64,000 nt of DNA from the NCBI GenBank assembly GCA_046563655.1, contig CM102286.1:12896001-12960000 (forward strand), in the 5' to 3' direction. How positions within the stretch are numbered: position 1 is the first letter of the stretch; every line of letters begins with the position of its first letter. A model generated the notes under the pieces. The model worked only from the letters and a program-made list of their open reading frames with translations, was not told where the DNA came from and did not search any database. The DNA comes from Yuukianura sp. NJ FZ-2021. Lineage: Eukaryota. Shown here piece after piece: positions 1 to 39,600 of this stretch. The translations under genes and the position numbers were made by a program.

Positions 1-541
1 TCCCTTTCAGTCATTGGAGGAAGAAGGGAAAGCCTTAAGCGGATCCATGGACGTGAATTATAACATTTAACTTTTGTCGTCAACTTTTCCTTTTTGGAGT
101 TTGGCGGGAAAGTGACTTGCGCTTAAAAACTTGGGCAGAAAGACTAGTTACTTCTGGCTCCGTTTTTACTTTTGGGACTGGTGGGTTCAGAGCATATATT
201 GAGATTGTTATAATATTTCACATTTAAAAAGTTTTCGCGCCCATCCTGCCAGAACTGTCAGTCGACAAATAACTCAAGTCACGGATTTTTAGGTCTTTTC
301 TTTCTACTTTTAGTCCTTTGGCTCCTAAGCATTTATTAAGTTCAAGTCTCAACTACACTTTTCATGGCTAATGACCTCTTGGCGTCAAGAGAACAGTGTG
401 AGGCTTTCAAGGACTTTAAAAAAAAGTATCAACTTTTTCAAAAATTTTAAATGTACTTTTGTGACTTGTGTAGAATGTGTAGAGACGGACCAGTATCTGG
501 AGATTTATCGTGTGTTTTCCAAATGGAAGAATAAAACTTAC

Positions 542-608
542 CAACGACGTTGAGGTTAACGTAGAAACTACGGTGCGGTTGTGTACTGATTTGACATTCG
601 TAGATTCC
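542..608 (-). CDS. dpr6: dpr exon: end of Ig1 (GIYECQISTQPHRSFYVNLNVV)
   Basis: Acceptor ...ttgCAG at 611-609 and donor GTAAG at 541-537; 67 nt, enters phase 0 and exits phase 1; carries the YEC cysteine. Not in the ORF track. Confidence 0.95.
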
Positions 609-15600: not shown

Positions 15601-18600
15601 GAAGCAGCAACTTACAACATCCAGTCACTTAACCCTTTCAACCCTGTTCAATTAAAATTAGAATTCTAGAGGTCTACGCTATTTCTTCACATCTTGCCAA
15701 AAACAAGCTTTAGCTTACACTAGAGATGAAATTTTTCAAAAACTTTTTTTTTGAATTTAGAAAGCCTCTTTTTTCCTTTGTTCTAAACACATCATTTCCG
15801 ATTTGAGTGGGATCAGGTGCTTTTCAAAAAGTTTGGTCGTAAAAGTGCGGCTAAAACACAAAACACGCAAATCTCGTTCTATAAAATATTGCCACAAATC
15901 TATTCCAAACTCGTTTCGGTTTTTTTTGAGCGTGCTTCTGCAAAAATATAAAAACTGCCGAAAGTGAGCTGTTAAATTCCTAACCGGAAATTTCGAAACA
16001 CAAATTTCGTGTCAATACCCGTGCCTACGGTTGTCATAAAGTTGATTACGATTTCCGGATTTGGATGGCTTGCGGTTTCGCGGTTTTTTCAAAAATGGGA
16101 AACTGGCTTAATACAATTCGTTCCAGCTTCCCATGACTTTTCTATTTTTTAGACTCCCATTTCACTGCATGATTAAAGTCGAAGTTAAAAAACCCACCAT
16201 GGTGGATTTTACTTTTATGTTGTCATTTCAAGCAAAGGATCAAAGACTTTCTCGTCTTCCGTGATAATCATTAAACCTAAAACTGACAACTTTTAGTACT
16301 GCTCTTAATTCTTAAAAGAAAAGAACAAATCTATTCATCCAAAGAACACAAATAAGCGAGTAACAAAAGAGTAAAAAAAAGCTCTCAGAAGTTCGAAGTG
16401 AGCCAAATAAAAGACTTGAGCACGCCACAAGTTTTTAGAGGAAGAAATATCATATGAGAGAAGCAAAAAATTAATAATACTAGAAACAGTGAAACAGAAG
16501 GAGAAAGCACAAAACAGAAATCGGAAAACCCGCAGTTACACACAGGAGACTTGGAGAGCACATCATTCGCTTTTTTCTCTACTGCAAATCGGTGGGCCAT
16601 TTCAGAAAATGAAACAGAAAAGAAGTGAACTGTGTAATGATTTTTACAAAGTATTTTTTTAAAGTAAACAACGCGGGAAAAAACCTAACTGAAAAGAAAG
16701 CGAAGACAAGGTACTACCAGCAGCACCGAGAAAAAAACCAAGCTGCTTTCTTTAGCCTAAGTTTAATCTATATATAAATTGAATCCGTTCCGCTTCATCG
16801 TTGAGAGCACATCAGAAAAGTGAATGAAAAGCTATCTTAACATAGAAGTTTCGCATGGGAAAGAGAAACTAACCTAAACCATGTGTCTATTTTGAAAATC
16901 TTCCGGATTCAAAATTTCGCCAAAATGTTAGGAAAAGCACGAAAATAGACAAGTTCTGAATCAGATGCGTCTGGGGTCCCATGTGTTTGTATAGATTTAC
17001 ATTAGGATTAAGCGGATTTGAGCTGCGTTGAACTAGTTTTACGCTAGGTTGTGACGGATTCAATCCGCGTTTGGGTTATCGAATGTTAGAGTGAACGTAA
17101 ACCAAAAATTTGAGCAAGACGATGAGAGATTGATGACAATCAATTAGTTCCAGGTGACTCTCTTCCTGTCCTCACCACGCTTTAATTCGTGTCAAAGCGT
17201 CGTCTCTGCGTATAGTCATAATGCAAAAGCCATTGCCGTTGCTCATCTTCCTCATCGTCAGATTTAATGGCCAAACCGCCTTTGATCTCTATTCCCTAGA
17301 ATATGATTTGAGGTTTTGGCAAAGTACTTAGAGTTTCATCTCTGCCAAAATATTCAAAGTTTCCGCCTCTTCTCCCTGTCTTCTTCGTCTCGATGGTTGA
17401 AATACCTCAAAGATTAAACATTATGTAGGGCAAAGAGCAAAGATCTTCTTAAGATCTTCAGCTAACAATTGTTTGCTCTTCGCCTCCAAAAGCTCTCCTG
17501 CTCTAATTCATTAATCGATTACTTTTCCCAAAGTGGAAACTAAGAAGACACTTGGAGCAGAATTATGAATAAATCCTAGACAAAGTACAAAACAACACGG
17601 TTCCATTTTCCTTTTCTAGTCTTTCTATTATCTTGTTCAACACTTTCTCCAACTACCGCCAACTTTTGAATTCGAATTGTATTGTTCTCGGCGGCGTTGA
17701 TACAATTTTCTCCATTTCTATTCTTCCCTTCGCTCCGGCGCGTACCATCACTACATGTTCATCAATAAAGAACACGCTGGGATAATTATTTCCAAGCGAC
17801 ATCGGCCAAAGTTATTAGAATCAACCCCGGAGCAAAGGATGTGTGGCGACAGTGTAACCATGACAACCGAAAAGTTCTTGTAATCATTTGACAAGATCCA
17901 TTTACACACGTTTGATCAATTCAAACAACTTTTTGTCCTACTAAAAGTATCATCTTTCAGTCCAATCAAAATCAACAATAGGTTATGTGCGCATTGCTCT
18001 TGAAGTTTAGCATGCACGTAGAAGAGAAAATAAGCCTCTTTTGAATTCGAAAATCCCGCGAACACTCTCGTTGAGTCAATTATTCAAATTGGACTGGATT
18101 TATATCCTCCCGCTCCCGCTTACTTCCTGGGATGGAGTTTTCTTTTACTCTATTTTGAATGTTCCACATGTGACAGCATAATAATATTGGATTCGTTGGA
18201 AATTTTGAACAAACGTGGCGCAAACTTTCAAAAATTCGTTTCTGCCTGCGCCTGAGTTTCTTACAATTGTCATCTTTTGTTATGACTGACGTATGGAGGG
18301 AACCAGCTTTCTTTTGCCTAGTTATTTTTTATACAATTTCCTTTTTTCTTTTTGAAAAGATAAATGACATGAACATAAAGTCAGCTTGCAGGAAATGTTT
18401 CAAAAATTTCAACTTTTCCCGGTTTTTCGTATTCCAAAGTTAAAAGAAAAATTTCCAGTCACTTTTTCTTCTCAGTTCTTTTCCGTAAAGGCTCAAAAAT
18501 AAAGATTTTTAGAAGTTCCATTTCCTTCCGTTTTTCTGTTACTTTAGGGCACGGCTTTCCCTTAACCCACTAAAGTGAACAAGCAGAAAGAAAAAGAAAT

Positions 18601-21600
18601 GGTGAATGTAAAAATTTGGAACAAAAAAGAGAAAGTTTGAATGGCGTTCTCCAAACTGCTTTTGAAAGTTTGAAATTTTTAGCTTCGAGGCATACCAAAA
18701 AGGATGAAAAACCAACTGAACATTTTTGGCAGAAAAAGGCGTTACTAAAATATAAAATATACTATTTCGTGAACATTTATATTTTAGCGCTTGAGCCATA
18801 ATCATATTCAAAAACTCCCGCGCTCGTAGAATGTCCGATCTGCGTGTAGTAGCTTTTGTTACTTTGTCTTCACCACCAGAAGTTGAGTTTGGCTTTCTAT
18901 GGAACCCGTAGCAACTTTTAATATCGAAAATCCCCGTTATGTCTATTATGTTCTTCAAATTGAATTACCAGAAGGACTGGATTTGATGGAGAGAAATGGT
19001 AATCGATAGTCCGTATGTTGCATTTCCGACGTTACGAGAAATAGGACTACTAAAGTATGACTATTACACTCAAAACCGTTCCGGAACCATTTTTTCCCAA
19101 AATTTCCCGCCAACGAAAGTCTCCTTGACAAGTCATTTATAATTTTTCATCTTGAGAAATTGACCACTAAAAGGGAATTGACGTTGTTGAGTTATATGAT
19201 ACCACTTTTCTACTAACAGTCTAGTTTCGTACTAACCTCAAACTGATGCTACAAATGGCCGTTTTCATAAAAAAAGGAAGAAAAGTTAAGAAAACTTGGA
19301 AATTTTAAAACCCATGTGAAAAGGAGCAGCTAGTTTTTTCTGAAAAGTTAAAATTTTTATAAATAACGCTTCGTCTAAACGCCGTTCTCTAAAAAATAGT
19401 TAATTTATGTCGAATTTGGCTTTTTTACGGCAGAATTCTTGAGAGATTTGTATTTTTTCTTTGAATTTTTTCGTTTTCTAAATTTAAAATAGTCAAATTT
19501 AGAACAATGGAATTGCATAGCTTCCAGGAAATAAAAAGGATTCGATCGATTGAGTTTCAGTAAAACGGTGCCGTGACACCGCTCTTTCCCAGCATATCGC
19601 TCCCCACGGTGCCATTGTCACACGGTCTAGTGGTAAGAAATATTGACTTTGATTTTCCCCAGTTAGCACCTTATAATCCACACATTTTGTCAATTGCCTT
19701 TCAGCCAAGTTGCCAAGTAGTCACCGTCACCATCAAAATGTTATGGTGAATGAAATAGCGTTCACAGTCCATTTGTGAATATTTTGACACTTTCTCCGCC
19801 TCTTAAACACACTAATCATTCTAGGTGTTAATTAACTCCGTTTTATTTCTAAAATTAATCAACATAAGTCTTAGCTTTTGAATTGGGTTTAACCACACTC
19901 TGTATTTCGGCATGAATAGACTATAATCCAAAGACTCAAATTGAAAGGACCTGGTGAAAGGAAAGGCGTTTGAATTTAAGCTCCAAATGTTCTGGCGTTT
20001 CTGAATTGGCGTGTTCAAATATCTGTTCAAATAGTCAAACAACTTTGGAAAGTTGGAGCCCTTACAAGATAGAAAGTGATCTGCTAATGTTTCACCTCAT
20101 TTCCATGTAAATGGTGTTTTCCCCTCAGAATGTTTCCTAAAAGAACCTAACCTAGCGTAGGGAAAGTAACATAAGGGTATTCTGGTGGGAAAGTGTTTTC
20201 TACCTCTTTCACTTTTAAATTGCTTGTTCCTTGTTTACCACCATTGTTCTCTCCTTGTAATAAAAAATCCAATTGCTTCTGTTTTTAAGAACCAATCTCC
20301 ATTGTCTTCGGCCCTTAAGTGCCTCTGTTCCCTTAAGATCCCGTTTTCTTCCTACTTTTCACTCACTAGAGGCTTGTTTTAGTCACTAGACGCTCCAATT
20401 CAAACACACCCATCACCTACTTCATTTTTTTCACACCTCGGAAAGTGTTTTTTTTTTCTCACCATTTTCTCACACCCTTGTCACACGTCAAGAAGAAGCC
20501 AATAAATTTCGGTTGTGGGATCGAATCCCGGAGAGAGAAAAAAATGACACGTAAGAGGTATACCTATAGTATCTACTATCAGAAAATTCTGGCGATACAT
20601 ACGAAAGATTACGAAGTGAGATGAAAAATTAAAGCTTCTTTTTTTTTGTGGTTGATTCAAACGTTAGAAGAAAACAAGTCTCTCGACTTCACCAGAAGTA
20701 CAAGAACGGGTTTTACCCAAGGTTTGTTGATTTTGATTTTCTTGAGGTTTTCTTTAAGGTTGGGTAATACCTCATGTTTTTTTCATTTTGCAAAAAAAAA
20801 ATGACATTTCATTTCAGGGCAACGTAGTTATAAAAATACGGCCGAATTTTTTAGATTTTGAATACAAATTGTAGCAATTTTTCGGATTGGTACTAAAATT
20901 GGTATCAATTTTTGTTTTTGTTTTTTTTTTCTGTCAACAAGCGAGGTAATACCCAACCTGATAAAGAAAATCTTCTTGTTGTGAAGGAACCTTGGGTTTT
21001 ACACTTTCGGTTTTTCGTATTTTTCTTGCAGTGGGCTGGAAAGGACGCATTAGAGTAAAAGATCTTTGGTTGGCAATTGAAAGTAGGACAAGAATATATA
21101 GAAATCCTAACAGGAATTTATAGGATGACATAAATCAGCGATTCCACAAATAAAATAAAAGGAATGAAATGTGAGGGTAAAGGGAGGCTCTCGTCCTATT
21201 TATCTTACATCTCAAAATCTTACTCCTTAATTCTTAAGAACTTTGCAAAAAAAAAGTATTGGGTATTGGTAGAACCACAGGAAGAAACTTACTGTTTTGT
21301 CTCTGTCGTCGTACAAAAATTTAGACATGCTAAAAAGCCTTAGACGTAAGAAACCACTTTGTTCGAAACGAGAAAAGACAACAGCGATGACAAGTTGGTC
21401 TAATAATATTTTTGTTTTAATTTTTCAAAAGCTAAAACTAAAATTTCAGAGGCAAATTTTTTGCAATACTGGGTAATTTCTGGCACTCAATTTTTCTGCG
21501 CAGCCTCATCTACTAGTTTGGCAAAAATAAAATTGTCATGCTTCAAAATAATTCATAATTTGAAATCACTCGACTGAAACGATGGGATGGTTCCAGAAAG

Positions 21601-24600
21601 CACTTTAGATCGTAATTTTTTGGGCCAATTTCCCACCCATTCTCATGTGTCCTCAAAAAAGCAAAAAAAAAACTTGGAGAAAGCGCGTGGAGAAAGTCAC
21701 AGTTCCACGCGATTGTTACGCATGGAACACTGCAACTTTTTAGTTTTGCTCGCTTTTAGGTTAGGTTTTGTTAGTTTTCATGTTTAGTCAGAAAGCCTTT
21801 ACCTTAAAAAGCTTCGACCTTAACAAATTTCAAGCCATTACGACTACAGGCGCAACCTAAACATAGCAACCGTTAGGTAAATTGGGCATAGAGAACCTTA
21901 TTAGAACAAATTGGAACCAACTTTTGGAAGAAAATTGTATTGCGTCATTTTCTGAAAATTTGTAAAGGCAAAGAACCTATTACGAAGTTTACAAAAGAGT
22001 TTTCTGGAAGTTAGAAAATAAAAAAAAAACTTAACAAACACCTTTAGGTTAACAACCACCACTTTCTGCCATGGTTAGTTCCCTTTTCTTTTCTTTCCGA
22101 AACCTTAATGTTAAAAAAGAGAAAGCGCATCCAATCAAAAACTAGTGTTTGTTAATTTTTGCTTGCGTAATATTAGGTATTCCTTGTATTTGGCGTGATG
22201 AAACCCAAGTCGGCAACGTCAATCGGTCAACTTTGATCTAATCGGAATTTTCCAACAAAAAGTTGGTTCTAGCTACGCCAATCTTTTACTTTGGCTAAAA
22301 TGCTACTTCGGTTTCCACTTTTCATTAATTCTTAAAACATAGGTTTTAGTCTTAGCGCGATGAAAGTGTTTTGGGGAAACCTCTAAGATTGAAATATTAG
22401 TGAAAGCATTCCGATTATCTATACTAAAAATCTGCCGCATGACAAATCGAAAGTTTCTTGTCGAGTGGAAAACGAAAAAAGATGAAAATTTTAACAGAAC
22501 GAATCCTTTTTCTCCAAATCCAGTATGCGCATCTTCATTCTATTGAGTGTGTCGCACTCATGCGTCAACCACATAAGGCGAAAAAAAATTTCCTCTCGGG
22601 CTTCGTCTGGACTGTAATTTTCAGGAGGGACAAAATTTGAATTCAATTATTGGCGGCAATGAATATTTGACAAGTTTCTGTTTACAACGGCCATGCTCTG
22701 GGATTTGGTGAAAGTGGAACAAAATTTGGAAGTAAAAGTGAGGAGCAAAGGAGGAAGCTTTCGACCGCTCAAAATGAAAACGTGCATAACTAACTAAGGT
22801 CGGTTGGTTAATGAGCAATAGGTGAGCCTGTTGTTTGTTTTTCAAACGAGTGTTGGTTGAAATTTTGGACGTTTAACAGCAAATGTAATAACTGGCTACT
22901 ATTCCAGAAAAATTAAATTCTGGAAACTACAAGAATCGAGAAACAAAATCCACTTTTCCAACCACAAAGCAAACGAGAAAAAAAATCAAACGCCATTAAT
23001 TTGGTGGCGTGTCAACTACCATCAAACGTTCAATTTTTTTTTCACCTCTATGTACATAACACTTTACTTGGACTTTTTCTCCCTCAATATTCCACTGACC
23101 TCGAATTCAAATTACATTGGTTTGCATTTTACGTCAATGTTAGGTCAACTCCAATTCCTAAAATTCTCAACAACAAAAAAATTCAATGGATCTTATCGAG
23201 TGAATAAAGCGAAACTTTCACCTACTGCACGCTTTTCTTTTTCAAAATTGGCATTAAGGTAATAGAACAATGGATTCTGTGCGTGGCTTTATGGGTTAGT
23301 TGTCACCTGATAACTGCTCCAAATTTCGCCCACTTCCACTCTTGAGTCCAATTGAGTAATCAATTCTGCCCATTCGCTCATTTTTTTGAAAAAAGTACAA
23401 ATTATGTTCCGAATTTTTGTGTTTCTAATAAAAAGTGTATAACTGTCATTACCACTACCATCCGCACTTTTTATGTTCACGTTGATCACGATGGGTGTGA
23501 TTGCGAACAGCCTAATTTTACAGAATTTGGATTTTCATTAGATTTGGCCTTTTTTTGCCTTTCACTTTCTTCTTCCTTCGCTCGTTTGCTCATTTGAGTG
23601 AAATCGAAGGAGGTTTATGAGGCTGAAGCCTTTACGACCCAATAGAATAGAAATTTACTATCGACGGAGGAGGAAATCCATTGCAGTTTAGGAAGAGACC
23701 AGCACTGAACGATGGAAAGTAGACTTTCTTTGCTTTCTTCTCTATCAGATGCATCTTCCAAAAGTTCTGGAAGGAACCAACAAAGACACACTATGGCTAC
23801 TGGGCCTGACCAAAGTCTATCTAACCAAGACGAATTTCATCCCATTAGGCACAGCCACAACTTACACTTTCTTCGGAGCTTTTACTGCTTTCCCTTCTCC
23901 AAAATATAACTTTTAAATCTTCTCCAGAAAATCTTTGAAAAGTTTCAAAAGTTTTGTCCAGCGAGAGGATTTTCCCTATAGAATGGAAAGCACTATAAAA
24001 TATTCTGTGTTCAAATAACGACTGGAGAAAAGTAGTAAGCGGGAAGAGATGATCCTGATTAAAATTCAAACCAAGTTTTCTCTATTCATGAACCCTCCTA
24101 TACTCCTTCATCTTTACTTTCACTTTAACTGTGGACCAACAATGATGAGTAGCATAGTAGGGCATCTGAGTGAAGCTACAGCTTGGATTAAGGTTTGAGT
24201 TAACTCTAGAGTTGCCCAGCTCAGTAATTAGAATATCGCACAAGATAAATAATATACGACTCTCCGGAGGCCCCTCCGTAATCATTTTCAAAAAGTTTTT
24301 AGTCACATAAAACTATAGTAAAGGGAAAATCCTAAACTTGTTCTTTAGTAACCGCTGCTTTTCCACAGATACAAATTTATTGTTTGTTCTAAAAATTTGT
24401 TTTGAACAACAAAGATTTGGGGTCTTGTTTCCCTTCAACCACAAACCATAGAACAAGTTTCAAGTCATGTTGCTTTACCATTGTAAACGTTACCGCGTAC
24501 ACACCTTACCCTATTGTAAATGTTACGCAACCCTCTCAAGACCAGAAAGGAAAAGTTTTCACCAAACAAAAACTTTTGGAAACGAGAAGAGAGAGCAGGA

Positions 24601-27600
24601 AAATGACAGGTTAATATATGACCTGCACTGGAGAGGTACAAGGGGCCTGGGACTGAAACTGCCAAGTCCCTTGAGAGTACTTGAGTTCACCTGAAGGATG
24701 GAATATTGCAACAAAGGACTAGTTTTCTGGAACAAGAAACTTTGCTTTCACTTGCTTCAGCGATAGCTCCAACGCTGCAGCGACAGCTTCCCAGTCAATA
24801 TTTCAGCGAACTGAAAAGAAGCGACAAATTATCTGTCCGACGTCGCCCGAAGCCCTTCTGGGCAACGTCTATTGTGATCTATAGGAAACCCTAAAACCTT
24901 AAAAGGAACAAGAAGATGAAGAAGGGAAGCAGGAGGCTGGTTGTGCTGGACCAATTGAGCTCCATGGAACCTAACCTAGCGTTCCAGGCACTTGAAATTC
25001 TCAAAGTGTGTTTCCCATAAATTACGTTTTTGGAGATACCAAACTACCCGGGTTTCTACCCGGGTATTTCGGGCTGAAAGAGAAAGTGAACGAAGGAAAT
25101 GACATCTGAACTAAAATAATAGAGCTCATCCATAGTCCGCATGGGGAACGAATTCTAACACAGAAGCTGGTAGTTCTAACCATTTATCCCATTTTCTAAA
25201 ACAGAAACTAATGAACCTCTTTTCACAAAATTTCGAAGTTTGACTTTTTCACTTTTTGTAAATTTTGAAAAAATGTGTGAACAGGCTAACGAGTAGAGAG
25301 TAGAGAACCGGAACGGATGGGCGAAGGAACACGCATGTGCAAAGAATTTGGAATTTTTGGAGCCAAGGATTACTGTCAACATTTCCAAAAGTCAGATACT
25401 AATCTTTTAGTCTTTTTCTAAAAAGCTCCTTGTTCTAAAATTTTAGAACACTCGGAGAATCATTTCAATTAGATCTCTGCACACTAATTTGACACTGATC
25501 CTTTTATCTTATTAGAGACATTTTCAAGCTTGCAAGTACGAAACTTTTAGCTCAACTTTTTGAAATCTGTGTAATTAAATTTACAAAACACTTCTTTATG
25601 CTCTTCCCTTTACAAGGTAATTCACAGCGTGTAAACGAAGTGCTTTTTATAGACTTTTTGGAATTTGGTTTCGAAGAAGTGAATTTGATTTCAATTAGAG
25701 TTACAAAAAGTTTTGCGAAAATTTGAAACTTCCAAATTCTGGGAATCTAAAATACTGGGTGAGAATTTAACTTTCACCAGGCAGAGAGTGGAAGTGTTGG
25801 AAACTCTTTGTGTTATTAAGAGGTTCCAAAAGTCAAAAGTCTTTTTAGCATAATTTCCTGCTGGAATATAATGAAGATTCTTAAAAAAAGAGAAAGTTCG
25901 AGAGCAAAAAGCTGAAAAGCTAGCTAGCGCTTAAGCGTTTGCTGGAGCGGCGCTAACGCTTCAAGTTCTAAAGCTTCTATTAACTTTTTTTCTTCATTTT
26001 GTGCTGGGTCGATAATAATTTGAGAAACTAGTAACTGCTTGGAACGAAGAAGAAAAAAGTGTCTGGAGGAACAGAGTTTTTTAACTAAGTACCTCCAAGT
26101 CCTTTCCAAAATCCAGTTAAGTGTTCTTTTCTAGAAAAAAATGTAGAGAAAAATTTGAAGGAAAAGGATAAGAGTTTAGTCTTCCTTTCTCCATGAGAAA
26201 ATGCATTTTCTCGTTTCTTTTTTTCTTCAAAAATGTCTTAGTTTTCTTCTCGAACTGAAGTAGAAAAGGAGTTTTCTCCGCGACTCTAAAAACTGTATTT
26301 TCGAAATGGAAAAAATGGCCATCATTCCGCGCGTATACTTTTTATCTTATCGTTCAAGCGCGGAAGCCTCCGTTTTTGAAAAAGTTTTTTTGGCGTTCCG
26401 AACGTTAGAGAAAGTTTGAGACTTTCTCTTAAAAGAAAAGAAGAAACGAGCGGAGGATGGATTCGGGAAGAGTCACATTAAGAAACTGTTCACAGAAAAT
26501 GGAAAAATGAATCTTATTCTGTTAATGTCTTCCCTAAACTCCTTCTTAACTTCCTTCAAATGACATTTTCAACATAATCTTTAGACTTTTACTATTCATT
26601 TTCTAACTTTTTAACATTCCTGAAGAAAAAAGTTAGAGCAGCAATTGAACTTAAAAAAAGCAATTTTTTATGTTGTAGACAGATGGCTGTTTAGCTATCA
26701 AGATTTAATTGATTTTGAGTTAATAACTTTGTGCAAAATTACTCAAAAACGCATCAAAACATGAGAAAGTAACGAAGTAATTTAATGCATGCATAGCACC
26801 AACCACAAGTTGTTAAAACAAGTTTGTTTTTGTTCTAATTTTGAATTTTAGAACAAACGTTGCAATGAGGAAGTAGTCGCCCTTGTTTCGTCTACTGAAC
26901 AAATTTGTTGTTGAAAAGTTTGAATATTTTATGTCACATCTTTCAAAGTTTTATGACTGGAGACAACTGGTGCTTTATTTTTGTTTATTTTCTTTAACAA
27001 AAAGTTTATGAAGTTTCTTCAACTTTCTTAGAAAATCAATTTCTGTTTACGTAATATATTGTATGAAAAGGTGGTTCTAGCATTCATATAGGAAAAATAA
27101 AATTTAGTTTTCCTGACAAGGTACTTTGTTTTTGAAAATCTAATGAAAGCAGCACATCAATACTGGTTTGTTTTAGACGCTAAAACTAATTTGAAAGAAA
27201 ATTAGTTGAAACGAACCAAAATGAACTTCTTTGGATTCAATTTGAATAAATAAATGTTTTGCACAAAATTTTGACTGATTTCAACAAAAATGGTGACTAA
27301 TATAAACTGTCTAAACTTGACTTAAAATGAAAAATTTCATTCATTTCAAAGTTTATTATTTGAAAACGTTTAGTTGTTTAACTAAGTAGAAACAGGAAGT
27401 ATAGAATTGCAAAGAATTATGACGTTCCTCTGCTGTAATAGAGAACTTGTTCTATTTTGTTAAAGAAATAGGCTAAAAGCCATTTGGTCTCTTCAATAAA
27501 ACTAGAAAGGAAATAGACTACGTTAGTCTACATTTCCCCAGTTTTTCTTCGTCTTCGTCTAAAAGTGTACTAGTCGTAAGTGTTCCTTGGGAAGTTGGAT

Positions 27601-30600
27601 GGTATAAGAAAATGGGAGCCAAATTTAGGATTGGTGAGCCCTGAAAAGTTTTAGTTTTGACTTGTCAAGACACTTTTTAGATTCACAAAGATGAGAAAAG
27701 TTTTAGAGGGAAAGGGTCCTAGGTTTTTAGTAGTAAAAGAAGTCTAAGGGCCCCATGATCACTGGACCGAAAACGACAGAATAAGACTTGAGTACTACAG
27801 AGAAGAAAGCAGAGTTACTTGTAGTACTAGAGCAGCCAAATTTCACCAATCCCACAAGCGCCTACTTCAAAATGAGCCAAAAAGAAATGGAAAACGACTC
27901 ATTGTTCTGTTCTCTCTGCCTAAATTACTCGCAAGTTGCGAGTCGCAACTCACTTCAGTTTTTCAAAATTTCTAAAACGTCTTTATTCGAATTTTTTTTT
28001 GTATAAGATTTTCGCTGTTAAAGATATTCTTAACCTCATAAACTTTCCACTTTTTGGAAAAAAGTATTTGTCAAGCCTAGGTTTACCCATTAAGCGATTT
28101 TATCGAACGAGGTCTATTTTCTAATTTTTTGGATAAATTTTTCATCAGGATAAGAAAGTTGATAAAAAATTTTCTTTTACAACTTACTCAAATATTCTCA
28201 AGTTTTTCTTGTTTGTTTGAATTTTTTTTAGAAATCCAGGAAACCTTTGTATTTTGCTTACTTGAATGAAGTCACGATTTACGTCAACTTACTCCAAAAT
28301 AAAGTTCAAGCAGAAGGAAAAACGTCTTACCTGAAAATAGAAAAATAGAAATTTTTAGTATATTTTTAGACAAAACCTTGAAATGTATTTTTTTTGTACC
28401 ACTCCACTCTGACTCAATTTATGCCTGAACTACTTTTCTTTTGTCACGAAGTTTAAAACCCTTGGAGAAAGTCTCTTTTTACTAAATGCTTCTCCAACTA
28501 ACTGCCATTATGTTTTCATCTTGACATAAGACTGAAGATGGGCATTTAAATCAGGAACCAACGACAAAAGTTTTTTGAAGTCATATCCGCCTTTCCATAA
28601 GAACCTCAATTGAGATGAAGATGATGGCGTATTCCACTCCCAGTAGAAGAAGTTTTATTACTCTATTTAGAACCACTTGACATACTTTCCAGGCACGCAA
28701 AAAAATGAACAAAAAATCCCAGGCCTGGAAATTGTTTGAAGCAGAGCTGGGCAACGAGTCCAGACTTTGGCTGAACAGTGCCAGTACCTCAAGCTTATGA
28801 CTACTTTTCATTAGAAATGAAGATGGAGGTTCTTTCTTCTTTTTGGCAACTGGCCCACTTTCGACTTTCTTTTGTATCTTTACTAGATTTAGTCCAATTT
28901 CAAAAAAGAAAGCTATTTTCAAAAATTCAAAATTTGAGAATACCATTTCCTTTATGGTCCTGCGAAATTAATACTTCGGCTGAGGAAGTCCCCGCTAACA
29001 AAACTGCTACCACGAAAACCAATTTCATTTTTGCTGAACAAACTCACAGAATCAGATTTTTAAACACTCAATAGCAAAATTTTTCACACTGTGCAAAGTC
29101 ACGCAGTCAATGCAAAGATATTAAAACAAACTAAACTTTTTCTAATTCTAGAAAGTTTCTAGTTCTAATTTTGTCAAATCAAGTAGAGATATTAAATGGA
29201 GTTCCAGAAAATGCGAAGCTCATCCATTATCATAATTTCTTTCCAAGGTTAAGTTGAACACGTAATGAATGGCTCCCTGCAGCTTTTCTGATAATGCCAT
29301 TAAATGTTCATTTTTTAACAAGGTCAAAGGTCAAGGCTATCCTGACTTCCTGTGAAAACGAATTTGAAATAACAGCAAATAAAGAAGTTTTAAAGTTTCG
29401 CATTAGATCAAAAGAAAGGCAAATATTTTGGAAAGGTTTGCCTTTGCATTCGATTAGCTTTACACGAATTTTTTTAAATTCTTGAACTCATATTTTATCT
29501 ATTGCAACAAAAAATTATTAGACGCAGTTTGGCACGAATGGCAGCGTCAAGCTGCTCCACCAAGCATCTTTACTGTTGCCATTCCAAAAAAAAACTAGGT
29601 AAGGCTGCTAATGCTTTTTGTTCGTTAATTTATGTTCATTTGTGTTCTTAATGAAATGTGCTTCTGTGCAGTAAGGAGCCAAACGCTCCTAGTCTTCTCT
29701 AAAAATTTTACAGCCATAATAATTTTTTCTCTGATTTCTTTTTCCTCTATGGAATAATATCCATTCACCAAAAGAACTTTACTACTCTCCACTCTACTCG
29801 CTCGCAGCAGTTTCCTTTGAACATGAAAACAACAACAACAAGAACACACACACAAAAGTTAGAAAAGTGAAAAACTTTTTAGAAGAGAGAGCTAGAAGCG
29901 GAGTAGTAGGTTTCACGGCCTGCCAAACTCCCTGCCCCTGTTCAATATCTCAAGAACAAATGTTGTTTTATTTTCTTTCGTGCCGAAACTGAAAGTGAAA
30001 GTGGAGAAAGCATCATTCTTTGTCTTGCTCTACTTCCACCTCAGCCTCCTGCAACACTCGTGCTAAATACATTATCTATATTAATGACTTCCAATTGCCA
30101 GCTACTCCCTCCAGGAAACAGCACAGCCCCCTTCCACTAGAAGTGTCTTTTGTTTTATTTACAATATCCATCAATGCCGCCCATTTTCTTTACGACCGTC
30201 GAAGGATCGATGGACTTCTCCCGGTTCGCCAATTCAACAAACAAAAACAAACTTGGAAGTCTCTAGTTTAGGAGAAAACACTTTTTCAAAAAACGAGTCT
30301 CGGAGTATAAGTGTGTAGTAAGTGAGTGTTTTAAATTCTGTTCAAATCACCCGCCAAATTTAGGAGAGACCAATTTCTAATTCAGCACCAAACTTGTTAT
30401 TAATGGGCGTTGATCCGGTTCTCAAACTCTACAAAATAAAGTTTCTTCCTTCTGCTTATGTAATGCTTCGCGCCTCTAGCGCGAAAAGGCGCAATGTGAA
30501 AGTTAAAGCCTGTGTAGGGTTATGTTAGACGCATAAAAATACTAGCTTTAAAAATGGCGCGGAAGTGAAAGTTGGTTCATAACCTTATGAATAAGTATGA

Positions 30601-33600
30601 AAGAAAAATAAATATGGCGACTACACCGTAATGCATTTGAGTAGCAGCTTTGGAGAAAGCTGTACCAAAAACTCTCGAGTTTTTTTCGTGTAGAATTTTC
30701 AAAATTCGTGCTGAATCTCGCCAGAATTTCAGCTTGGATTGCACTGAACCACTAAGACTTTTTTTTCAATGTTTCTGGAAGGCTTTGGAGGAGGCTAAAG
30801 GAAAGTCAATTGAAGTGAAGCGAAGGGTTTGAAATTCCCACGGGACGAGAAATAAATTTGGCTGACCAAGGTCTCTTGACCCCATTGACAGGAAAAGTTG
30901 GTGACATGGGAAGTCTCTTGGAAAGCACTTTTGGTCGTCTCTGTACTTTTTTAAAAAGAAAAAAGGGGTAATCGTGCAGTGACAAACATGTCAAAATCCT
31001 TACTCTCTCCTACTTACAAATTGACAACTTGTGTCAAACAAATTTTTCTTTCAAAAAAAATTGCAACAATTTTTTCCTTTTTTTAAAAATACATAAAGGC
31101 TCATGGATTCGTCTTTTGGCTCACACCATTACTTCAACGCATTTCTTGTAATCTGATTTGCTTCTGCTCCAAATTATGAGAAAACAGTGGAGGTGTTTGT
31201 TTACTTTTATTTCACAAGTTTATGCTACTTTGTGAAAGTTACGCAACTTAACGATTTCGCTAATGGTTTGGCATACATAAGGTTTTGCGTAAGACTCTGT
31301 GCCAACAGTTTCAGCTGGACAAAAATAATAAAACCAATAAAAATGAAAATTGATATTTCGAAATAGTTTTTGAAAACCGTCTGGAAGTTGTTAAGAAAAT
31401 GTCAGTGTTAGGTTAGTTAGAATTGGAAATGTTTGGGCTGTTTCGGTTAGGCTAACGTTTGGTTTTAGCCTTCTAGGAAATGCAAATCCAGGAAATTCAA
31501 GAGGAGAGCACGTAACTATGCATTTTAAATCAAGTCGGAATGGAGAAACGTCCTTGAGTGAAACCGCCTCCATGAAACTGCATTTTGTATGTTCCCGCGT
31601 TTCACAATTTATTTTTGGCTGGAGAGCTAATCTTGAAAACGAGGCTATGTAAACTTGAGGTCTGCAGAATGTAATTTAATTTCTGTGGGTCCTTTTGTTT
31701 AGAATTTTAAAGTTCAAAAGTGGACGTTCGTGCAGAGAATAAAGAAGTTAAGAAAAACTGTGGGCATAGCGTTTTTCGTTTTGTTCGGATCGCCAGTTCC
31801 CGCTTTTTTCGTTGTGTGCCTCGTGTTCGCATTTGCCAAAAAACCACTCTCCGCATAGAGACTCTAAATTTAGCAAAAGAATGTCGTGGACAAAGGCCGA
31901 AAAGTTGACAGAGCTTTATCTACAGAGTGACTCTGCTGCTACGCCACGCCCTCACTTTGAAGTCTTCTAGGAAAAGCTAGTGCCTCGTCTACACTTGACT
32001 TATGATGAAAGCAGAATTGTTTGGTCAACCAATCTTCCTGATCTTCTGCAAAAAGAATGCAATACAAAGACCTGTCGTATCCAGCCTTCCAACTCTCAGT
32101 GTTCTCTATTTTTCGTTGCTTTCTCCCGTGTAGCTATAATTCGGCATTTTTGTTTCGCCATAGTCCACGATTCGCGAGTTTCACCTTTCGTCGTTTTCGT
32201 AACTTTTCGCTACAGGGAATCAAAATTTAACGAGAGAAAGTTCTCCCATTTTGTTTTTTCTCGATTTTTTTTTTGGGGACTTGATTAGAGTCAGCAAAGG
32301 ACGTACCGCTTTGTTTGCTCTTCTAAATTCACTTTTGCTTTTAGTTGTTTCCGAGTTGCTCCAATTGCTGTAACTAGAAATGTGTGTATTGGGCCTAAAA
32401 ATTCCATTAGTCGCATGTTTTGGATTTCGTAAAGTATTCATGACACGAAGAAGCACAGTCCCTTCATCGCCAGCAACTGGCGCGTACCTTCTCATCTGAA
32501 TTTATTGTTTCCCGCCAGTTCCCTAATGGATTTAATGGCCGATTCCCAATTGCCGAACCCTAGTTTCACTTTTTACAGTTCGTGTATTCACCTACAGCAC
32601 AGTTTTTAATGGAACTAAAAAGCTTGAGATACTACAGTCTGCGACTAACATAAACCAAAAATAGAACAATTTGAACTGCCATACTGCGGAACTAGGGAAC
32701 TTAAATTATGAGAATTTGCAATATTGGGAAGGCGGAAAGGTAGTTGCACGCAATTGGTTCCACTTGTTAGGCTTTATGTTTTGTATTGACAAAGTAACTG
32801 GAATTGCTCCCAGAACCATGCGAGGTTTGAGGTAAAACGTACACTTGGATTTTGGATTTGGCGCACAAAATCTCCTGGACTGGAAAGTAGTTTATGGAGG
32901 AATTTAGGACAAAAGGAAATGTAGAGGGAGAAAGTAAAAAGACTTTTATTCCATTGGCAGCCGTTGTTGTTGTTTCTGATTTTATCACACTCTGACACGG
33001 CACACGAACAAAATAAGTCCAAAATGGACTTTCTCCTTTGCTACAAAAAGTTCTCTTCGGAAGGACGTGATGCCCAAACTAGTCGGGAACTGAGAACAAT
33101 CGAATGACAAAAGCAGATGATTGCAGTGGAAGTAAATGGTGAGTTACGACGATGACGCTACAAGCCTTCATCGACAAATGCATCATCATCAAAACTTTAC
33201 AAAAACTAAACAGCACTTATTTCCACACATTTCATACTTTATTCCATGCCATTTTTGCTGTTCCAAAGGAAAACAAGGTTGATCATTATAGCAGTTTAGG
33301 CTATACTTTTCAAAAAATGTCGCCTGAGCAAAAACAAATGTAACTTAAAGCAGTTGGAATTATGGTCAAACAAAACTTTCACTTTGCACTCTAAACATCC
33401 CTGCTAAATTTTCTTTGTGAAATGACGGTGTTAAGTTGTGTTTGATTGAAAAAATAGTGCAGCCAACGCAGTATTTCTCCGAGTTTCAACAACATTTTTT
33501 TTTGCTTCAAAGTTCATTTGTTTCTGTCTATTTTTAGACTGAATTTGCTGCAATAGTTTTCCTTCTACAACCGAAAATTTTCTACATAAAGAAAAATCTT

Positions 33601-36600
33601 CTTCTGTCTACGTGATCCGCCTCGTTCAAATTGTTTCTTCTCTTGTTATGCTCCATGCATCTCAAGAATCTCAAATTTTTTATTCCTCCGAAAGATGCAT
33701 CATTACCGACGCACAGGATCTAGGAATTGAACTGTTAAAAAGTTCACATCAATTTTTCACAGGCTTCATTTTTATATTTTTTGTAAGGATTTCAGATTTT
33801 CATCCACAAATCTTTTTTTTATTCTTCCACGTAGCTGCTATATTGACTTTTTTTTAAAGCTGGAAAGAAGCAAAAAGTCTTTCCCTTAAATTGGAAAACG
33901 TGTTCGAAGCTATAAGCGCTCTACTTCAAAAACGCACAGTCCCTCGTCCCCCCTCCGGCTTTCTTAAGCTAATGGGAGCCTCATTTGAGAAGAAAGTTGC
34001 TCATTAAGAAGGGAATGAGGCCATAGACCTCTGCCGAAAGTGAAAGTTCCGAAACTTCCGAGAGGTGAAAGTCTGGATATCAAAAAGGGATATGAGTAAT
34101 TCAAATTTTCGCGCCAACCAGCCTGCCAACCTCCCGCTCCGTTTTTATGTGTTTGCCCGTGGCTTTTCGTTTTAAGTTGCATGATGAAAAGGCATTTATT
34201 GCTCATTTCCTCATTTCCTTTCAGATCGTCCCATTGAGTGACTCATAAAACACTCATTTTCTCCTACTCATTTACATTCACTTCTCCTGAAACAGTTTTA
34301 ACAGTTTGCCTTAAATGAACTTTCTCAAATTTCACTTTCTCCACAACTGTCTTCCGTGTTTTCAAAGTTAGCTTTTCCTACAAAATGAAAATGGCGAAGT
34401 GAAAGTATAAGTCAAGCAAAGAAGTAAATGTACAGGGTGATTCAAATGTAAAGCTATGTTTAAGAAAAATCGGAAAAAAATCTACCACTCTGTATTTGGT
34501 AAGGGTGTGGTAAATTCGTGAAATGTTTTTGCCAACTCCGAAACTTTTAGAACACGTTGTACATTTGCGCGTTCGTAAACATGCACCAGAATGAAACATT
34601 TTTAGTGACCAATAAACTTTCGTCGTCGTCGTCTCTCCTACACCTTGCCGACGACAGGCGCTCCAGTTCTTGTTGTCATAAAAATATAATGGGTCTTGTA
34701 AGGTCATGAAAGCTAATACTGTTGCTGTTCATGCTCGTTTCTTCAAGTCAGCTTCATGTTCGAATCTAAAAATCTAAGCTAATCATTCTCAAATATTCTA
34801 AAACGGAAGAAGCAGCGTTAGTGCCAGTTGTGTCTTTCCTTTTTATGCTGTCACGGGTCTTATAAAATATCCATTCCGTTGCACTTTTCATTCCGACCGA
34901 GAACTCTGCTTCTCCTTCATTTTATCCGCCAGGGAGGATAAACTTCCCTAGACTATTCGTATTATTTATGGCTTTAAATATTCAGGAGGTCCTTAATACC
35001 GAAGCGCTCCTTTCAAACTAAAAGGAAACAGCGACACTTTCCCCATTACTCATCCCTAGTTCTTAAGGCAGGATGGGATCCTAACCTAAACTTTTGGACT
35101 TGCTAAGTTTATAGTACCATCTTTTACTATTTGCATTTTCACCAAAAGCCATTTCGCACCAGATAGTTTGCCATACTGCGAAAAGGCCAAAGCATTTTAT
35201 GCTAAAATAACTTCAGACTCATTGCGCATACCCCCTTTAACCTAAAAGTCGTTTCAGAATATAGGTTCAACGAATGGCAAAATAACAAATTAAAAAAAAC
35301 GGTCCTAAATCGTAATCCGGAGTGCACGAAAGTACCGCAAGATGGCGCTGCATTTGCAAACGGCTATAACGAGACGAACAATGATTATTAACCATGAAAT
35401 GAAAACAGTTGACCTTTGACCCAAAACGAGGTCACTCGGGGTCATGTGATGTAGATGAGACGAACTAGTGAAAACAGATAACAGAAATATTGAGCTGTTT
35501 TCAAGATAATTGCCGCCAACGGCCGCCCAGACAGACAGACAGACAGACATGTTATATGCACAAAGTAGCTTTCGCTACTTAATAGCCCACGCACCCAACA
35601 GAGTGAAAATAGCATAACAAAACCTAACTTGAACAAGGACATAGGACCCTAGGTGAAAGTCTTGGAAGAATAGATTGGCGCAGTTTTCTAGTTGAACAGT
35701 CACCGGAGCTTAATCATCCATACATTAAGGTGGAACTAACCTTAACGGCTCTCATAGCCATTCTTTTCTGAACAAAGTTCGGAGGAACAAAGCTTTAGTT
35801 GAGGAGACTATGTGAGGGTAGGCCCATTTACCAGGACTAATCTAGGCCTTCTATCACCTCTTCCTTACTTCAGTCATCAATCATAATGAGAATTGGGAGG
35901 TAGGATTTGGGAAGATGGGAGCCACTTTGGAACCTGAGACATAACCGTCTTTAGGCTAACTGAGGACTAAGCTTTCCTCTGGAAACGAAGATTCTAGCGG
36001 CAGAAGTGGCATGGTTAGGTTAGTCATAAAGAGAAGGGGATATTTCCCCTTTTCACCTCATGAACTGGTGAGAGTGTGGGAAGAAAAGGAGGCTCGGAGG
36101 AGAAAGTAGTGGTGAAAGTAATAGTAATATCCCAGAACTATTTTCCAGACGAAGGGAGACAAGTAAGGGCCAAAGTCATTCTGCCTCTTCTCCTCATCTT
36201 CTGGGATCGAACAAAGTAAAAGTAAGTGGAGGAAGAAGGTTTAAATGTGATCCTAGTTAACTAGATAGTATCAGTCCCACATCACTTCAAATCCCTAAAA
36301 CTTAAGGAGACACGTCGGAGGGATTGCAAAACCCAAAATGCCACTTTCTTTTCAAAGGTGTAGAACACTCCCGCAATGACTTTCAAACTCTAGCAAAAGG
36401 AATTCAGCGGAAATTGGAAAAAGAACAGAAAAGAAAACCGAATTCCACGAAAGGTGGAAACATATCTAAGATCTACTCTCAGTAAAATTGTCAACAACTA
36501 AATGGTAAACTACAACGTAGGCAACAGATAACAACTAACCTAACACAATATCTAAAATTTGAAAATTTTGAAAAACGCGAATGTCATGTTGTTTTTGTTT

Positions 36601-39600
36601 AGTAAACTTAAAAAAATGATCAAATGCAAAAGTCGTGTTTAAAACTCAGACACAAATTAAAACTAGCTTCCACAATTGATAAACTTAATTCGGTTAAATT
36701 GAATTAATTTTTCATAACGCAAAAGCTTACGCTAACCTGTTTTTCAATATTCTACAAAATATTTTTCAGAATCAACTGTTATTAATTTTTTATAAATTGT
36801 TGAACATTTCGATTTTGAACATATTTGTGTTGACCACTTTGACGAAAGTCAGTGTGGTCAGTTTAGTACTAATGGCGTCAGCGAGGATAATAGTGAAATG
36901 AAGTCAGGCTAAAAGTAGAAGATATTGTCAGTGGTGAGACTTCTTCGAGAATGTGGAGCCAATTTGGAAGAAAGTGTGCTTTCTCCACTGCATTGCTTCG
37001 TTGCCCATCTATAAAACCGACAAGAAGTGCCCAACTACGGGTAAAAACCTGGTGGAAATGATAAAAAGTCTGGATTTCTTTATAGCCGAAGCTGAGAGAG
37101 CAGCTTTCCCCAATACTCCCCTCCCTCAGCTTTCTTCTTATTTCCTGGTACGACTTGCTACCAACCCCAACTTCCGTGCACACTTGAAGGTCATTTTCAT
37201 GAATGGTTTCTTTTGGAAAGTGACTTGGAGCAAAGAGGTCACCTAACCAGATTTAGGCATTGTGTAAACCGAGTATACCTTAGTGCAGCAAAATTGGTTT
37301 CCTGTGACATAAGGGCTTCGGGTGAATAGAGAGTTCCATTTCCATTGATGAGATTTAGATCCATCTTCAAAATGGAGCACAGAATGTTTGAAAGCTCTGC
37401 TGCTGGCTAGCTACTAGTAGCAAAGTACTAAAGAACAGAAAATTCAAAGGTCCGCGGTATTTATAAAATAAACTTTTTTGATTAAATTTAGCCTGGGTTC
37501 TCAGCCTCCTCCTCCTTCGAGAAAGTAATCCATTAGTCGTGCCCCGGCTACTTTTCCTCCCCCACTGGAGAAAGTTCATCTTAATTAACCATTCAGATTT
37601 TAACCTACTTTTTCAGCAACTTAAACTTATCAAAAAGTGATTCACAACTTTCACTTTTACACTAATTTTACACTTTCGAACAAAAATAATTTCCAGATAT
37701 AAAATAAATCCTGAAAATGAAAAGAGGAGAAAATGAAAAACGGAAAACAAAAAATATTATAAAAAATCATTCCTTTTTTTTCAAAAATTTCTGGGTTGGA
37801 AAAAATTTCAATTTTCTTCACCTCGAAAGCAATATGTTGTCGGCCATTCATCATTCGATGGCCGTCGTAACAAAAGAGTGAATGAGGAAAGCATGTAGGT
37901 CACTTTCTCCTCCATCCATTGTTCAAAAACTGAAAGATGAAAATTCTTGGTGATCGAGGAAGACATTCCTGTGCGTCTTGCTAGCCTAATATTTGCGCAT
38001 AGTTTCTCTCTCCAAATCCTTAATTCAGCTGGAAGATTATCTGAGAAGATCTGGGCGACATACCTTTGTGTATCGGTTCGGTATGCACTATAATAACCTC
38101 TCCTGAAACTTTCTCTGCTGAAATACGATGGAGACGAGGCCATGTGGGTCAACAAAATGAGAAATGGCAAAATTCCTGGAATTCCCGAGAGCTTCATTTC
38201 TATTGTTTAGCTTTTCGAGATAGAAAGAACACGGAGCCCCCAGAATATGAGTTGAACTGGAGATAAAATGGAACCTAATTGGATGTATAGCATACACAAT
38301 TGTTCTGCTTTTTTTTTCAAGAACTTTTGGAAAAATTGGAATGAAGGCAGTGGACCGTATAACGATTGTAATTTTCCAAGAATTTCATCGAAAAAAATCC
38401 GAAGACTTCTGCGGAAAAGTTTGAGCAAATCCTACAAATGTTGGGAAAAAAAGCTCTCTTGTTCTAATTTTGTAGAGTTCAATTTACAATCAAGGAATGA
38501 TTTTTCTTGATCTTCACCATTTCTTTTTTTTTCAAAAAACGTACCAAAAATTGAGAACTGAAAAGAAAGGATGGAGTGAGTACAAAGTGGAACTATTAGA
38601 TCAGACACTGAAGGATGTGAAATCAAAATGGATGGAAGTTGGAGAAACCTATTGTACTTTTACTACTCACAACCAGTAATAGGCTTCAGCAAACGATGTT
38701 CGCGTTTCTTACTAGTTTCTACAAAATTTTTAGATCCTGGACTTGCCCAAAAACCGAAAAAATCGAACCAGTCAACTGTGGTTTACAACTTTACTTTTTT
38801 TTGGAGAAAAAAATCCGGGTAAAAGCAATTTCGAGTTGCTTTCACTCCACTTTTTAAGAATTTTTCATCCTCAACCTGATATTGATATATTTTTCTCAAA
38901 AAATCTTTTCTTTTTGGCTGTTACGAACAAAAAGCTTTTTCCTTCTTCTTCAAATGGACCATTTTGTGTGACTTGTAGAGGGACTTAAGGGCCACTTTTT
39001 GAGTTATTGAGACTAAGGGTCATGGGCCTATAACTTATGTTCAGAATCCTTCTTATTTTTTCACAGAACCTGACTTTTTGTGAGGACTCGTAAGTCCTCC
39101 TTCATCCTATTGACTATTTAAAGGGCCCTTGGACAGTTTCCTTTTGTCCAGAAAATGGGGACAGATCAGTATAGTACCCTGGCCTAACCATTTTGTTTTC
39201 TTTGTCATTTAAGACTCTTGTAGGCTCTTCGGCTATTGGCAGAAGCATTAAACTCTTTGCAGAAACTTTGACGTTGAGGAATGGACCAAGAGTCCAACTA
39301 ACAGTAAAGTTTGATGGCTCACTTCCGATCTGGAGATGCTAAGTGACCATTTATCATTTTTTGGAAAACAACCAATTTTCCAGGAAATTTTAGAAACGAG
39401 GAAGACAAATTTTTCAGAATTTTGGGAAAAAAGTTTGCAGCAGAATTTGATAAAAAAATATTCAAGGCTCTGCGTTTTCTTCCTGTCAAATTTCAAAAAT
39501 CACCGCCTCTGCACTATTGTAATTAACCGGCGTTGTAAAAACTTTGTTAGCTCAACTTTTTATAATTGAAATGAAACCTAGGTTTCCTTTCTCTGAGCTA

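Follow-up and report, generated by a model that had tools for sequence, protein, structure and literature searches.

Is the 50.9-kb intron of a dpr gene of Yuukianura sp. NJ FZ-2021 removed in one step, or in two steps by way of an intronic ratchet point? The question arises from a stretch of 64,000 nt (positions 12,896,001 to 12,960,000 of contig CM102286.1, assembly GCA_046563655.1) that was analysed as a whole and is referred to below as the window. An earlier note on this DNA had pointed to a 3′ splice site directly abutting a 5′ splice site within a 50.9-kb intron of a gene on the minus strand, and had proposed that this gene, a member of the dpr family, is recursively spliced. We conclude that the site is likely to be a functional intronic ratchet point, accompanied by a short cryptic recursive-splicing exon (RS-exon), in the 50.9-kb intron of a dpr6/dpr10-like gene; judging from the DNA itself, we put the probability of this reading at roughly 60%. 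Since a textbook-looking ratchet point is present, with decoy donors just downstream of it, the intron is probably removed in two steps, as many long fly introns are. All features of the earlier proposal that can be tested on sequence agree with it, and it stands as a well-founded prediction and not as a demonstrated fact.

A 3′ splice site abutting a 5′ splice site in the long intron

The gene and all features of the site described below are on the minus strand of the window. At 28360-28325 this strand reads tactaaaaatttctatttttctattttcag|gtaagacg, with an AG at 28332-28331 directly followed by a GT at 28330-28329. The ratchet point core, AG|GTAAGA, occupies positions 28325-28332, its donor part being located at 28330-28325. 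A branch-point-like TACTAAA is found at 28354-28360; the candidate branch A, predicted from the CTAA within it, is at 28355, i.e., at −25 from the 3′ splice site. The closest AG lying upstream from this 3′ splice site is at −47, and there is none between. The polypyrimidine tract (28333-28352) contains 17 pyrimidines in 20 positions, with TT at −5/−6 and C at −3, and positions −7 to −1 of the site read TTTTCAG. For exons 2, 3 and 4 of the same gene, whose acceptors are the three compared, the corresponding numbers are 12, 13 and 11 of 20. The motif quoted earlier (TACTAAA at 28360-28354, AG at 28332-28331 and GTAAGA at 28330-28325) is thus borne out. RNA structure near the site was unremarkable (z-score of 0.00).

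The ratchet donor and the donor of exon 1 share the same 10-nt context, CAG|GTAAGAC. Ligation of exon 1 to position 28330 would regenerate the donor that exon 1 had just used. On the inferred gene model, the ratchet point lies at 62.6% of the intron length and divides the 50,857-nt intron (60179..9323) into segments of 31,849 and 19,008 nt, the same values that had been calculated before.

We searched for comparable sites using feature-based criteria: an AG|GT juxtaposition, TT at −5/−6, a pyrimidine at −3, a GTRAG donor and at least 14 pyrimidines in 20 positions. One site passed on the sense strand of the intron and none on its antisense strand. The claim that this is the only strong juxtaposition on the sense strand of the intron, which had been made by eye, thus holds when judged by these features. 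In the whole window one further site passed, on the plus strand at 1777, and it was lost when the tract threshold was raised to at least 16/20.

Competing donors and a proposed two-step removal of the intron

Several candidate donors are clustered immediately downstream of the ratchet donor: gga|GTAAGT at 28287-28292 (+38), a weaker gac|GTAAAT at 28282-28277 (+48), caa|GTAAGC at 28256-28261 (+69) and tga|GTAAGT at 28182-28187 (+143). The 38-nt segment that ends at the first of these, 28293-28330, is a candidate cryptic RS-exon. Its inclusion would shift the reading frame so that a stop is first met at codon 96, while an exon of 48, 69 or 143 nt starting at 28330 would bring an in-frame stop at codon 53; a premature stop is thus found in every possible inclusion product (38, 48, 69 and 143 nt). 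A short candidate exon that breaks the frame and has a weaker downstream donor, as expected of a cryptic RS-exon, is present at the ratchet point.

The strength of the competing donors was compared by scoring U1 duplexes in register with the 11-nt 5′ end of U1. The ratchet donor forms eight Watson-Crick pairs with the U1 5′ end, with a duplex energy of −11.0 kcal/mol, and pairs with U1 better than any of its competitors, the values for those at +38, +48, +69 and +143 being −6.4, −1.9, −4.5 and −5.6 kcal/mol, respectively.

The clustering of donors at this spot is unusual for the intron. Over the 50.9-kb intron there are 39 copies of GTAAG (0.77 per kb). Four of these fall inside 148 nt at the ratchet point, and the 1500 nt to each side are otherwise free of the sequence; three or more copies are present in only 0.35% of 150-nt intron windows. 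Neither the donor cluster nor the regenerated donor identical to that of exon 1 had been used in the earlier note, and both strengthen the case for a ratchet point.

The following sequence of events would account for the arrangement. Once transcription has passed 28330, the strong 3′ splice site (TACTAAA, 17/20 tract, TTTTCAG) would be recognised through exon definition together with the donor at +38 (also those at +69 and +143). Exon 1, which ends at 60180, would be joined to 28330, with removal of a 31,849-nt lariat. The ligation would regenerate CAG|GTAAGACG, the same 10-mer as the original donor of exon 1. The rebuilt donor, being the best U1 partner among the competitors, would be preferred over the RS-exon donors and would be spliced to exon 2 at 9322. 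This second step would remove the remaining 19,008 nt, including the cryptic exon, and would leave no trace in the mRNA. Splicing from an RS-exon donor in its place would leave the mRNA with a shifted frame or an in-frame stop.

A 16-nt direct repeat (family D4), whose two copies are 88% identical, is located at 28180-28195 and 28285-28300 and holds the +143 and +38 donors. On the plus strand it reads CAACTTACTC.AAAT. It could be the result of a small duplication or of convergence on a donor sequence.

Comparison with known recursive splicing systems

At the ratchet points of flies, a consensus 3′ splice site directly meets a consensus 5′ splice site at AG|GT; TT is present at −5/−6 in 196 of 197 of them, their pyrimidine tracts are more prominent than those of ordinary acceptors, and their branch points, usually an A, are found at −36 to −21 (Duff 2014, preprint). 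Their host introns are 11.3-132.7 kb long and are divided into segments of 2.6-63.6 kb (Duff 2014, preprint). The AG|GT juxtaposition, the TT at −5/−6, the prominent tract, and intron and segment sizes within these ranges are all found at the site studied here, and the predicted branch A in TACTAAA, at −25, falls inside the published interval. The GTAAGA donor is used by the recursive microexons of Ubx, and neuronal adhesion genes are a class enriched among recursively spliced genes (Duff 2014, preprint). In Table S1 of Pai 2018, a GTAAGA donor is present in at least two validated rows; the same work reports a high-confidence site in 63% of fly introns longer than 40 kb and an enrichment of recursive sites in first introns of flies.

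The site thus resembles the zero-nucleotide ratchet points of Drosophila (Ubx, kuz, osp, fz, luna and others) in its unusually strong tract and in a branch point near −25, which in our case is predicted. As in Drosophila, the host intron is tens of kb long and belongs to a neuronal or developmental gene, with segment sizes inside the published range, and the GTAAGA donor is that of the Ubx microexons. The site differs in that it comes from a different arthropod, and in that its first segment, at 31.8 kb, exceeds the usual segment length in flies. Moreover, the Drosophila sites are defined by junction, saw-tooth, lariat or conservation evidence, and the present one is predicted from its sequence.

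A cryptic RS-exon is about 50 nt long, has its own donor, is usually out of frame and follows a ratchet donor that is stronger than its own (Joseph & Lai 2021). The candidate exon described here is similar to cryptic RS-exons of flies in being short (38 nt vs. ca. 50 nt), in having its own donor, in breaking the frame and in the greater strength of the ratchet donor. It is unlike them in that three to four candidate donors (+38, +48, +69 and +143) are clustered where one is the norm. Competition between a regenerated donor and the RS-exon donor is also known from RS-exon splicing in long neuronal genes of vertebrates (Sibley 2015, as cited in Joseph & Lai 2021). In vertebrates most RS-exons are retained in the mRNA, and just nine intronic sites with full suppression have been noted (Joseph & Lai 2021); the motif found here, with its very strong tract, is in contrast of the fly type.

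Chance and other explanations

A number of points weigh against recursive splicing at this site. The site lies at 63% of the intron length, off the midpoint toward which single fly sites tend, and its 31.8-kb first segment exceeds the 9-15 kb typical of the pieces of fly introns (Pai 2018). The fly prior may not transfer to a non-melanogaster arthropod: outside Drosophila, the only insect claim that we found comes from locust, where a motif-predicted recursive site was supported by a U2AF65 pull-down (PMC8892266). Neither the word "dpr" nor six dpr FBgn identifiers are present in the supplements of Pai 2018 (five, text) and Joseph 2021 (two); since the data come from S2 cells, this absence says little. 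Among the papers searched for at least three of the four subjects recursive splicing, ratchet points, Drosophila and dpr, none ties dpr genes to recursive splicing. The gene model itself, from exon 1 to exon 2, is inferred from an open frame, a phase match and splice signals. Finally, the 11-nt core TTNYAG|GTRAG is not rare, with 0.24-0.28 occurrences expected per intron in block shuffles (1500 shuffles per block size, here and below). A second match to the core is present on the plus strand at 1772-1782, opposite the dpr gene in its second intron; it reads cttttcag|GTAAGC, with AG|GT at 1777/1778 and a 15/20 tract. No plus-strand gene is evident around this match, a reminder that chance does produce the core motif when nothing else is required.

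These last numbers bear on the explanation that, in an AT-rich intron, a GTAAGA has come by chance to follow directly on a T-rich stretch with CAG at its end, the site being unused or rarely used and the intron being removed in one step. On both strands of the window the core was found twice against 0.48 expected, and 7 of 100 shuffles reached two. A looser pattern with one free mismatch was found once against 0.52 expected, which is not significant and was uninformative. It should also be kept in mind that the earlier reader had scanned the whole window for anything notable, a selection effect that favours finding such a site. The pyrimidine tract changes the expectation considerably, lowering it to 0.002-0.05. 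When the core was combined with at least 14/20 pyrimidines, 0.037-0.049 sites were expected per intron (54-68 of 1500 shuffles contained one or more); with at least 17/20, a threshold that is the site's own value and was thus set post hoc, the expectation was 0.002-0.004 (3-6 of 1500). Markov models of orders 1, 3 and 5 (400 simulations each) agreed, giving 0.02-0.095 at the lower threshold and 0.002-0.005 at 17/20. The four GTAAG copies in 148 nt, against an average of 0.77 per kb, are an independent feature at the same spot, and when the core, 14/20 or more pyrimidines and a GTRAG between +20 and +100 are required jointly, 0.006-0.008 sites are expected per intron (9-12 of 1500).

We also searched related genes, namely 52 dpr-like loci (300,169 bases) collected from metagenome contigs by a protein-seeded scan. 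Their antisense strands contained no site under the same criteria. In addition, an acceptor stronger than the real ones of the gene, located 19 kb ahead of the true acceptor, would presumably be hard for the spliceosome to ignore. Taken with the expectations above, these points make a mere chance juxtaposition unlikely in our view.

A different function for the same signals would be that of a regulated cassette or poison exon. In this case, an exon of 38 or 69 nt would extend from the acceptor at 28331 to the donor at +38 or +69, and its inclusion in some cells would shut off Dpr production through nonsense-mediated decay (NMD) or yield a truncated product. The strong acceptor, the three GTAAG donors within 143 nt and the premature stops in all inclusion products are what one would expect of an NMD-inducing cassette exon, i.e., a short intronic exon whose inclusion creates a premature stop. 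Expressed RS-exons do occur in flies, where fewer than 50 of them are known against more than 500 silent sites, and in mammals they are the usual form (Joseph & Lai 2021). However, poison exons do not carry a donor directly at their 5′ end, while here the 5′ end is the best donor of the region. With a U1 duplex of −11.0 kcal/mol against −6.4 or weaker, skipping is predicted by the published competition model, in which a stronger ratchet donor leads to RS-exon skipping (Joseph & Lai 2021). We regard regulated inclusion as quite improbable, and it would still include the recursive first step, which makes it a variant of the ratchet point explanation and not its opposite.

The host gene

The ratchet point reading depends on where the exons of the host gene are placed. 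Exon 1 (60180-60291, 112 nt) starts with an ATG at 60291 and ends in phase 1 with the donor CAG|gtaagacaat; its 3′ end reads ...ccaacag|gtaagacaatgg at 60180/60179. The upstream exon that the earlier note had placed here, running from this ATG to 60180, is thus present. It encodes a hydrophobic N-terminus that appears to be signal-peptide-like. The intron between exons 1 and 2 (9323-60179, 50,857 nt) starts with GTAAGACAATGG and ends with TTGAAATTTCAG. Exon 2 (9123-9322, 200 nt), in which the first immunoglobulin (Ig) domain starts, has the acceptor tttgaaatttcag|AT and ends with acg|gtaagt at 9123. Exon 3 (758-901, 144 nt) encodes the core of this domain, Ig1, and exon 4 (542-608, 67 nt) its end.

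The best solved-structure matches of the exon 2 peptide were Drosophila Dpr10 (6nrq, 2.4e-10) and Dpr6 (5eo9, 2.4e-09). Exon 3 matched Dpr6 (5eo9) with an E-value of 1e-22 and Dpr10 (6nrq) with 6e-20. Since both exons match these structures and exons 1-4, when joined, are open over 174 codons without a stop, the gene is taken to be Dpr6/Dpr10-like. Exon 3 is identical to Dpr6 at about 40 of 48 residues (~83%, counted on the alignment), and the organism is for this reason not D. melanogaster. As judged on the Ig1 exons, the host is thus a Dpr6/Dpr10-like gene of a non-melanogaster arthropod, with Ig2 and the C-terminus located beyond the window. Among 5.8 billion proteins searched with the exon 2 peptide, none matched at an E-value of 0.001 or below, and the short exons, when searched singly, had no match in Pfam. 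No homologue of exon 1 was detectable among the 52 related dpr-like loci. The intron contains no open reading frame of at least 130 amino acids with the look of a protein family, and no tRNA or Rfam match was found in the window and, hence, none within the intron.

It is very improbable that the gene model is wrong in such a way that 60291-60180 is not spliced to 9322, or that further exons lie between, with the site falling in some other intron or in an exon or untranslated region of another transcript. In favour of such an error, the model is built from an open reading frame, a phase match and consensus signals, and exon 1 has no detectable counterpart in related loci or Pfam. Against it, the joined frame leads from a hydrophobic N-terminus into a Dpr-type Ig domain, and no other open reading frame of note and no RNA gene lie in the intron. 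A ratchet point would also work with a different upstream exon, provided that the end of that exon is compatible.

Consequences of the proposed recursive splicing at this locus

If the ratchet point is real, the recursively spliced genes would include a dpr-family gene for synaptic recognition from an arthropod other than D. melanogaster, and the full fly-type architecture (a strong tract, TT at −5/−6, a regenerated donor and a short frame-breaking exon) would exist outside the species in which it was defined. To a specialist, the existence of such a site would come as no surprise, given that more than 500 fly sites are known and that most fly introns longer than 40 kb have one. A mutation of the GT at 28330-28329 should then wreck the gene by forcing a poison exon into the mRNA, an effect demonstrated for fly kuz and Ubx (cited in Joseph & Lai 2021). 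Ordinary annotation gives no hint of the importance of these two nucleotides.

One can go further and imagine that the ratchet point, together with its three to four decoy donors, forms a tunable switch, in which a neuron-type-specific choice of donor sets the level of the Dpr6/10-like protein; we consider this a long shot. Use of the ratchet donor would in that event give productive mRNA, and use of the donors at +38, +69 or +143 would give a frameshift or a stop and, as a result, decay. Recursive splicing would then have a part in the cell-specific code of Dpr expression that directs how synaptic partners are matched, and the presence of such a switch in an insect lineage outside Drosophila would imply that the device is old.

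Related loci

On the sense strands of the 52 dpr-like loci, four sites passed the criteria given above, three of them being genuine ends of exons and the fourth lying in an intron. The intronic one, in locus L033 at position 2886, lies ~4.2 kb upstream of the Ig1 exon of an arthropod dpr-like gene and reads tttttttttag|GTGAGACATC; a GTGAG donor follows it at a distance of 40 nt. It has the same layout of a ratchet site followed by a short exon and is the only intronic sense-strand match in 300 kb. An exact 23-mer spanning the Yuukianura site had no matches in metagenome, genome and viral contig collections. None of the 52 loci contains exon 2 plus the long upstream intron of a close orthologue.

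The collection of metagenome contigs thus holds at least 52 arthropod-type dpr-like loci (L001-L052), presumably host DNA from host-associated samples, and is therefore a usable source of insect comparators.

When the window was compared with the 52 loci by blastn, matches were found only at window positions 16-968. Two blocks located downstream of exon 4, at 16-86 and 192-275, match positions 1413-1483 and 1264-1349 of L001, the closest related locus, with 93% and 79% identity, respectively. On the gene strand neither block has a clean open frame; they may represent small exons or conserved elements of an intron.

Exons 3 and 4 are separated by an intron (609-757) that is 149 nt long here and 86 nt long in L001. 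Most related loci lack it, exon 3 continuing directly into exon 4; a gap at this place is also seen in a few others (L012, L040 and L042). The patchy occurrence of this intron among L001-L049 points to intron gain or loss in the family.

Finally, an interspersed repeat of ~210 nt is present in the window in three copies of one orientation, at 7266-7477, 20779-20997 and 51947-52169 (plus-strand register). Two of the copies are in the long intron and one is in the next intron, and the copies are 63-88% identical to the reference copies. The repeat looks like a short non-autonomous element, similar to a short interspersed nuclear element (SINE) or a miniature inverted-repeat transposable element (MITE).

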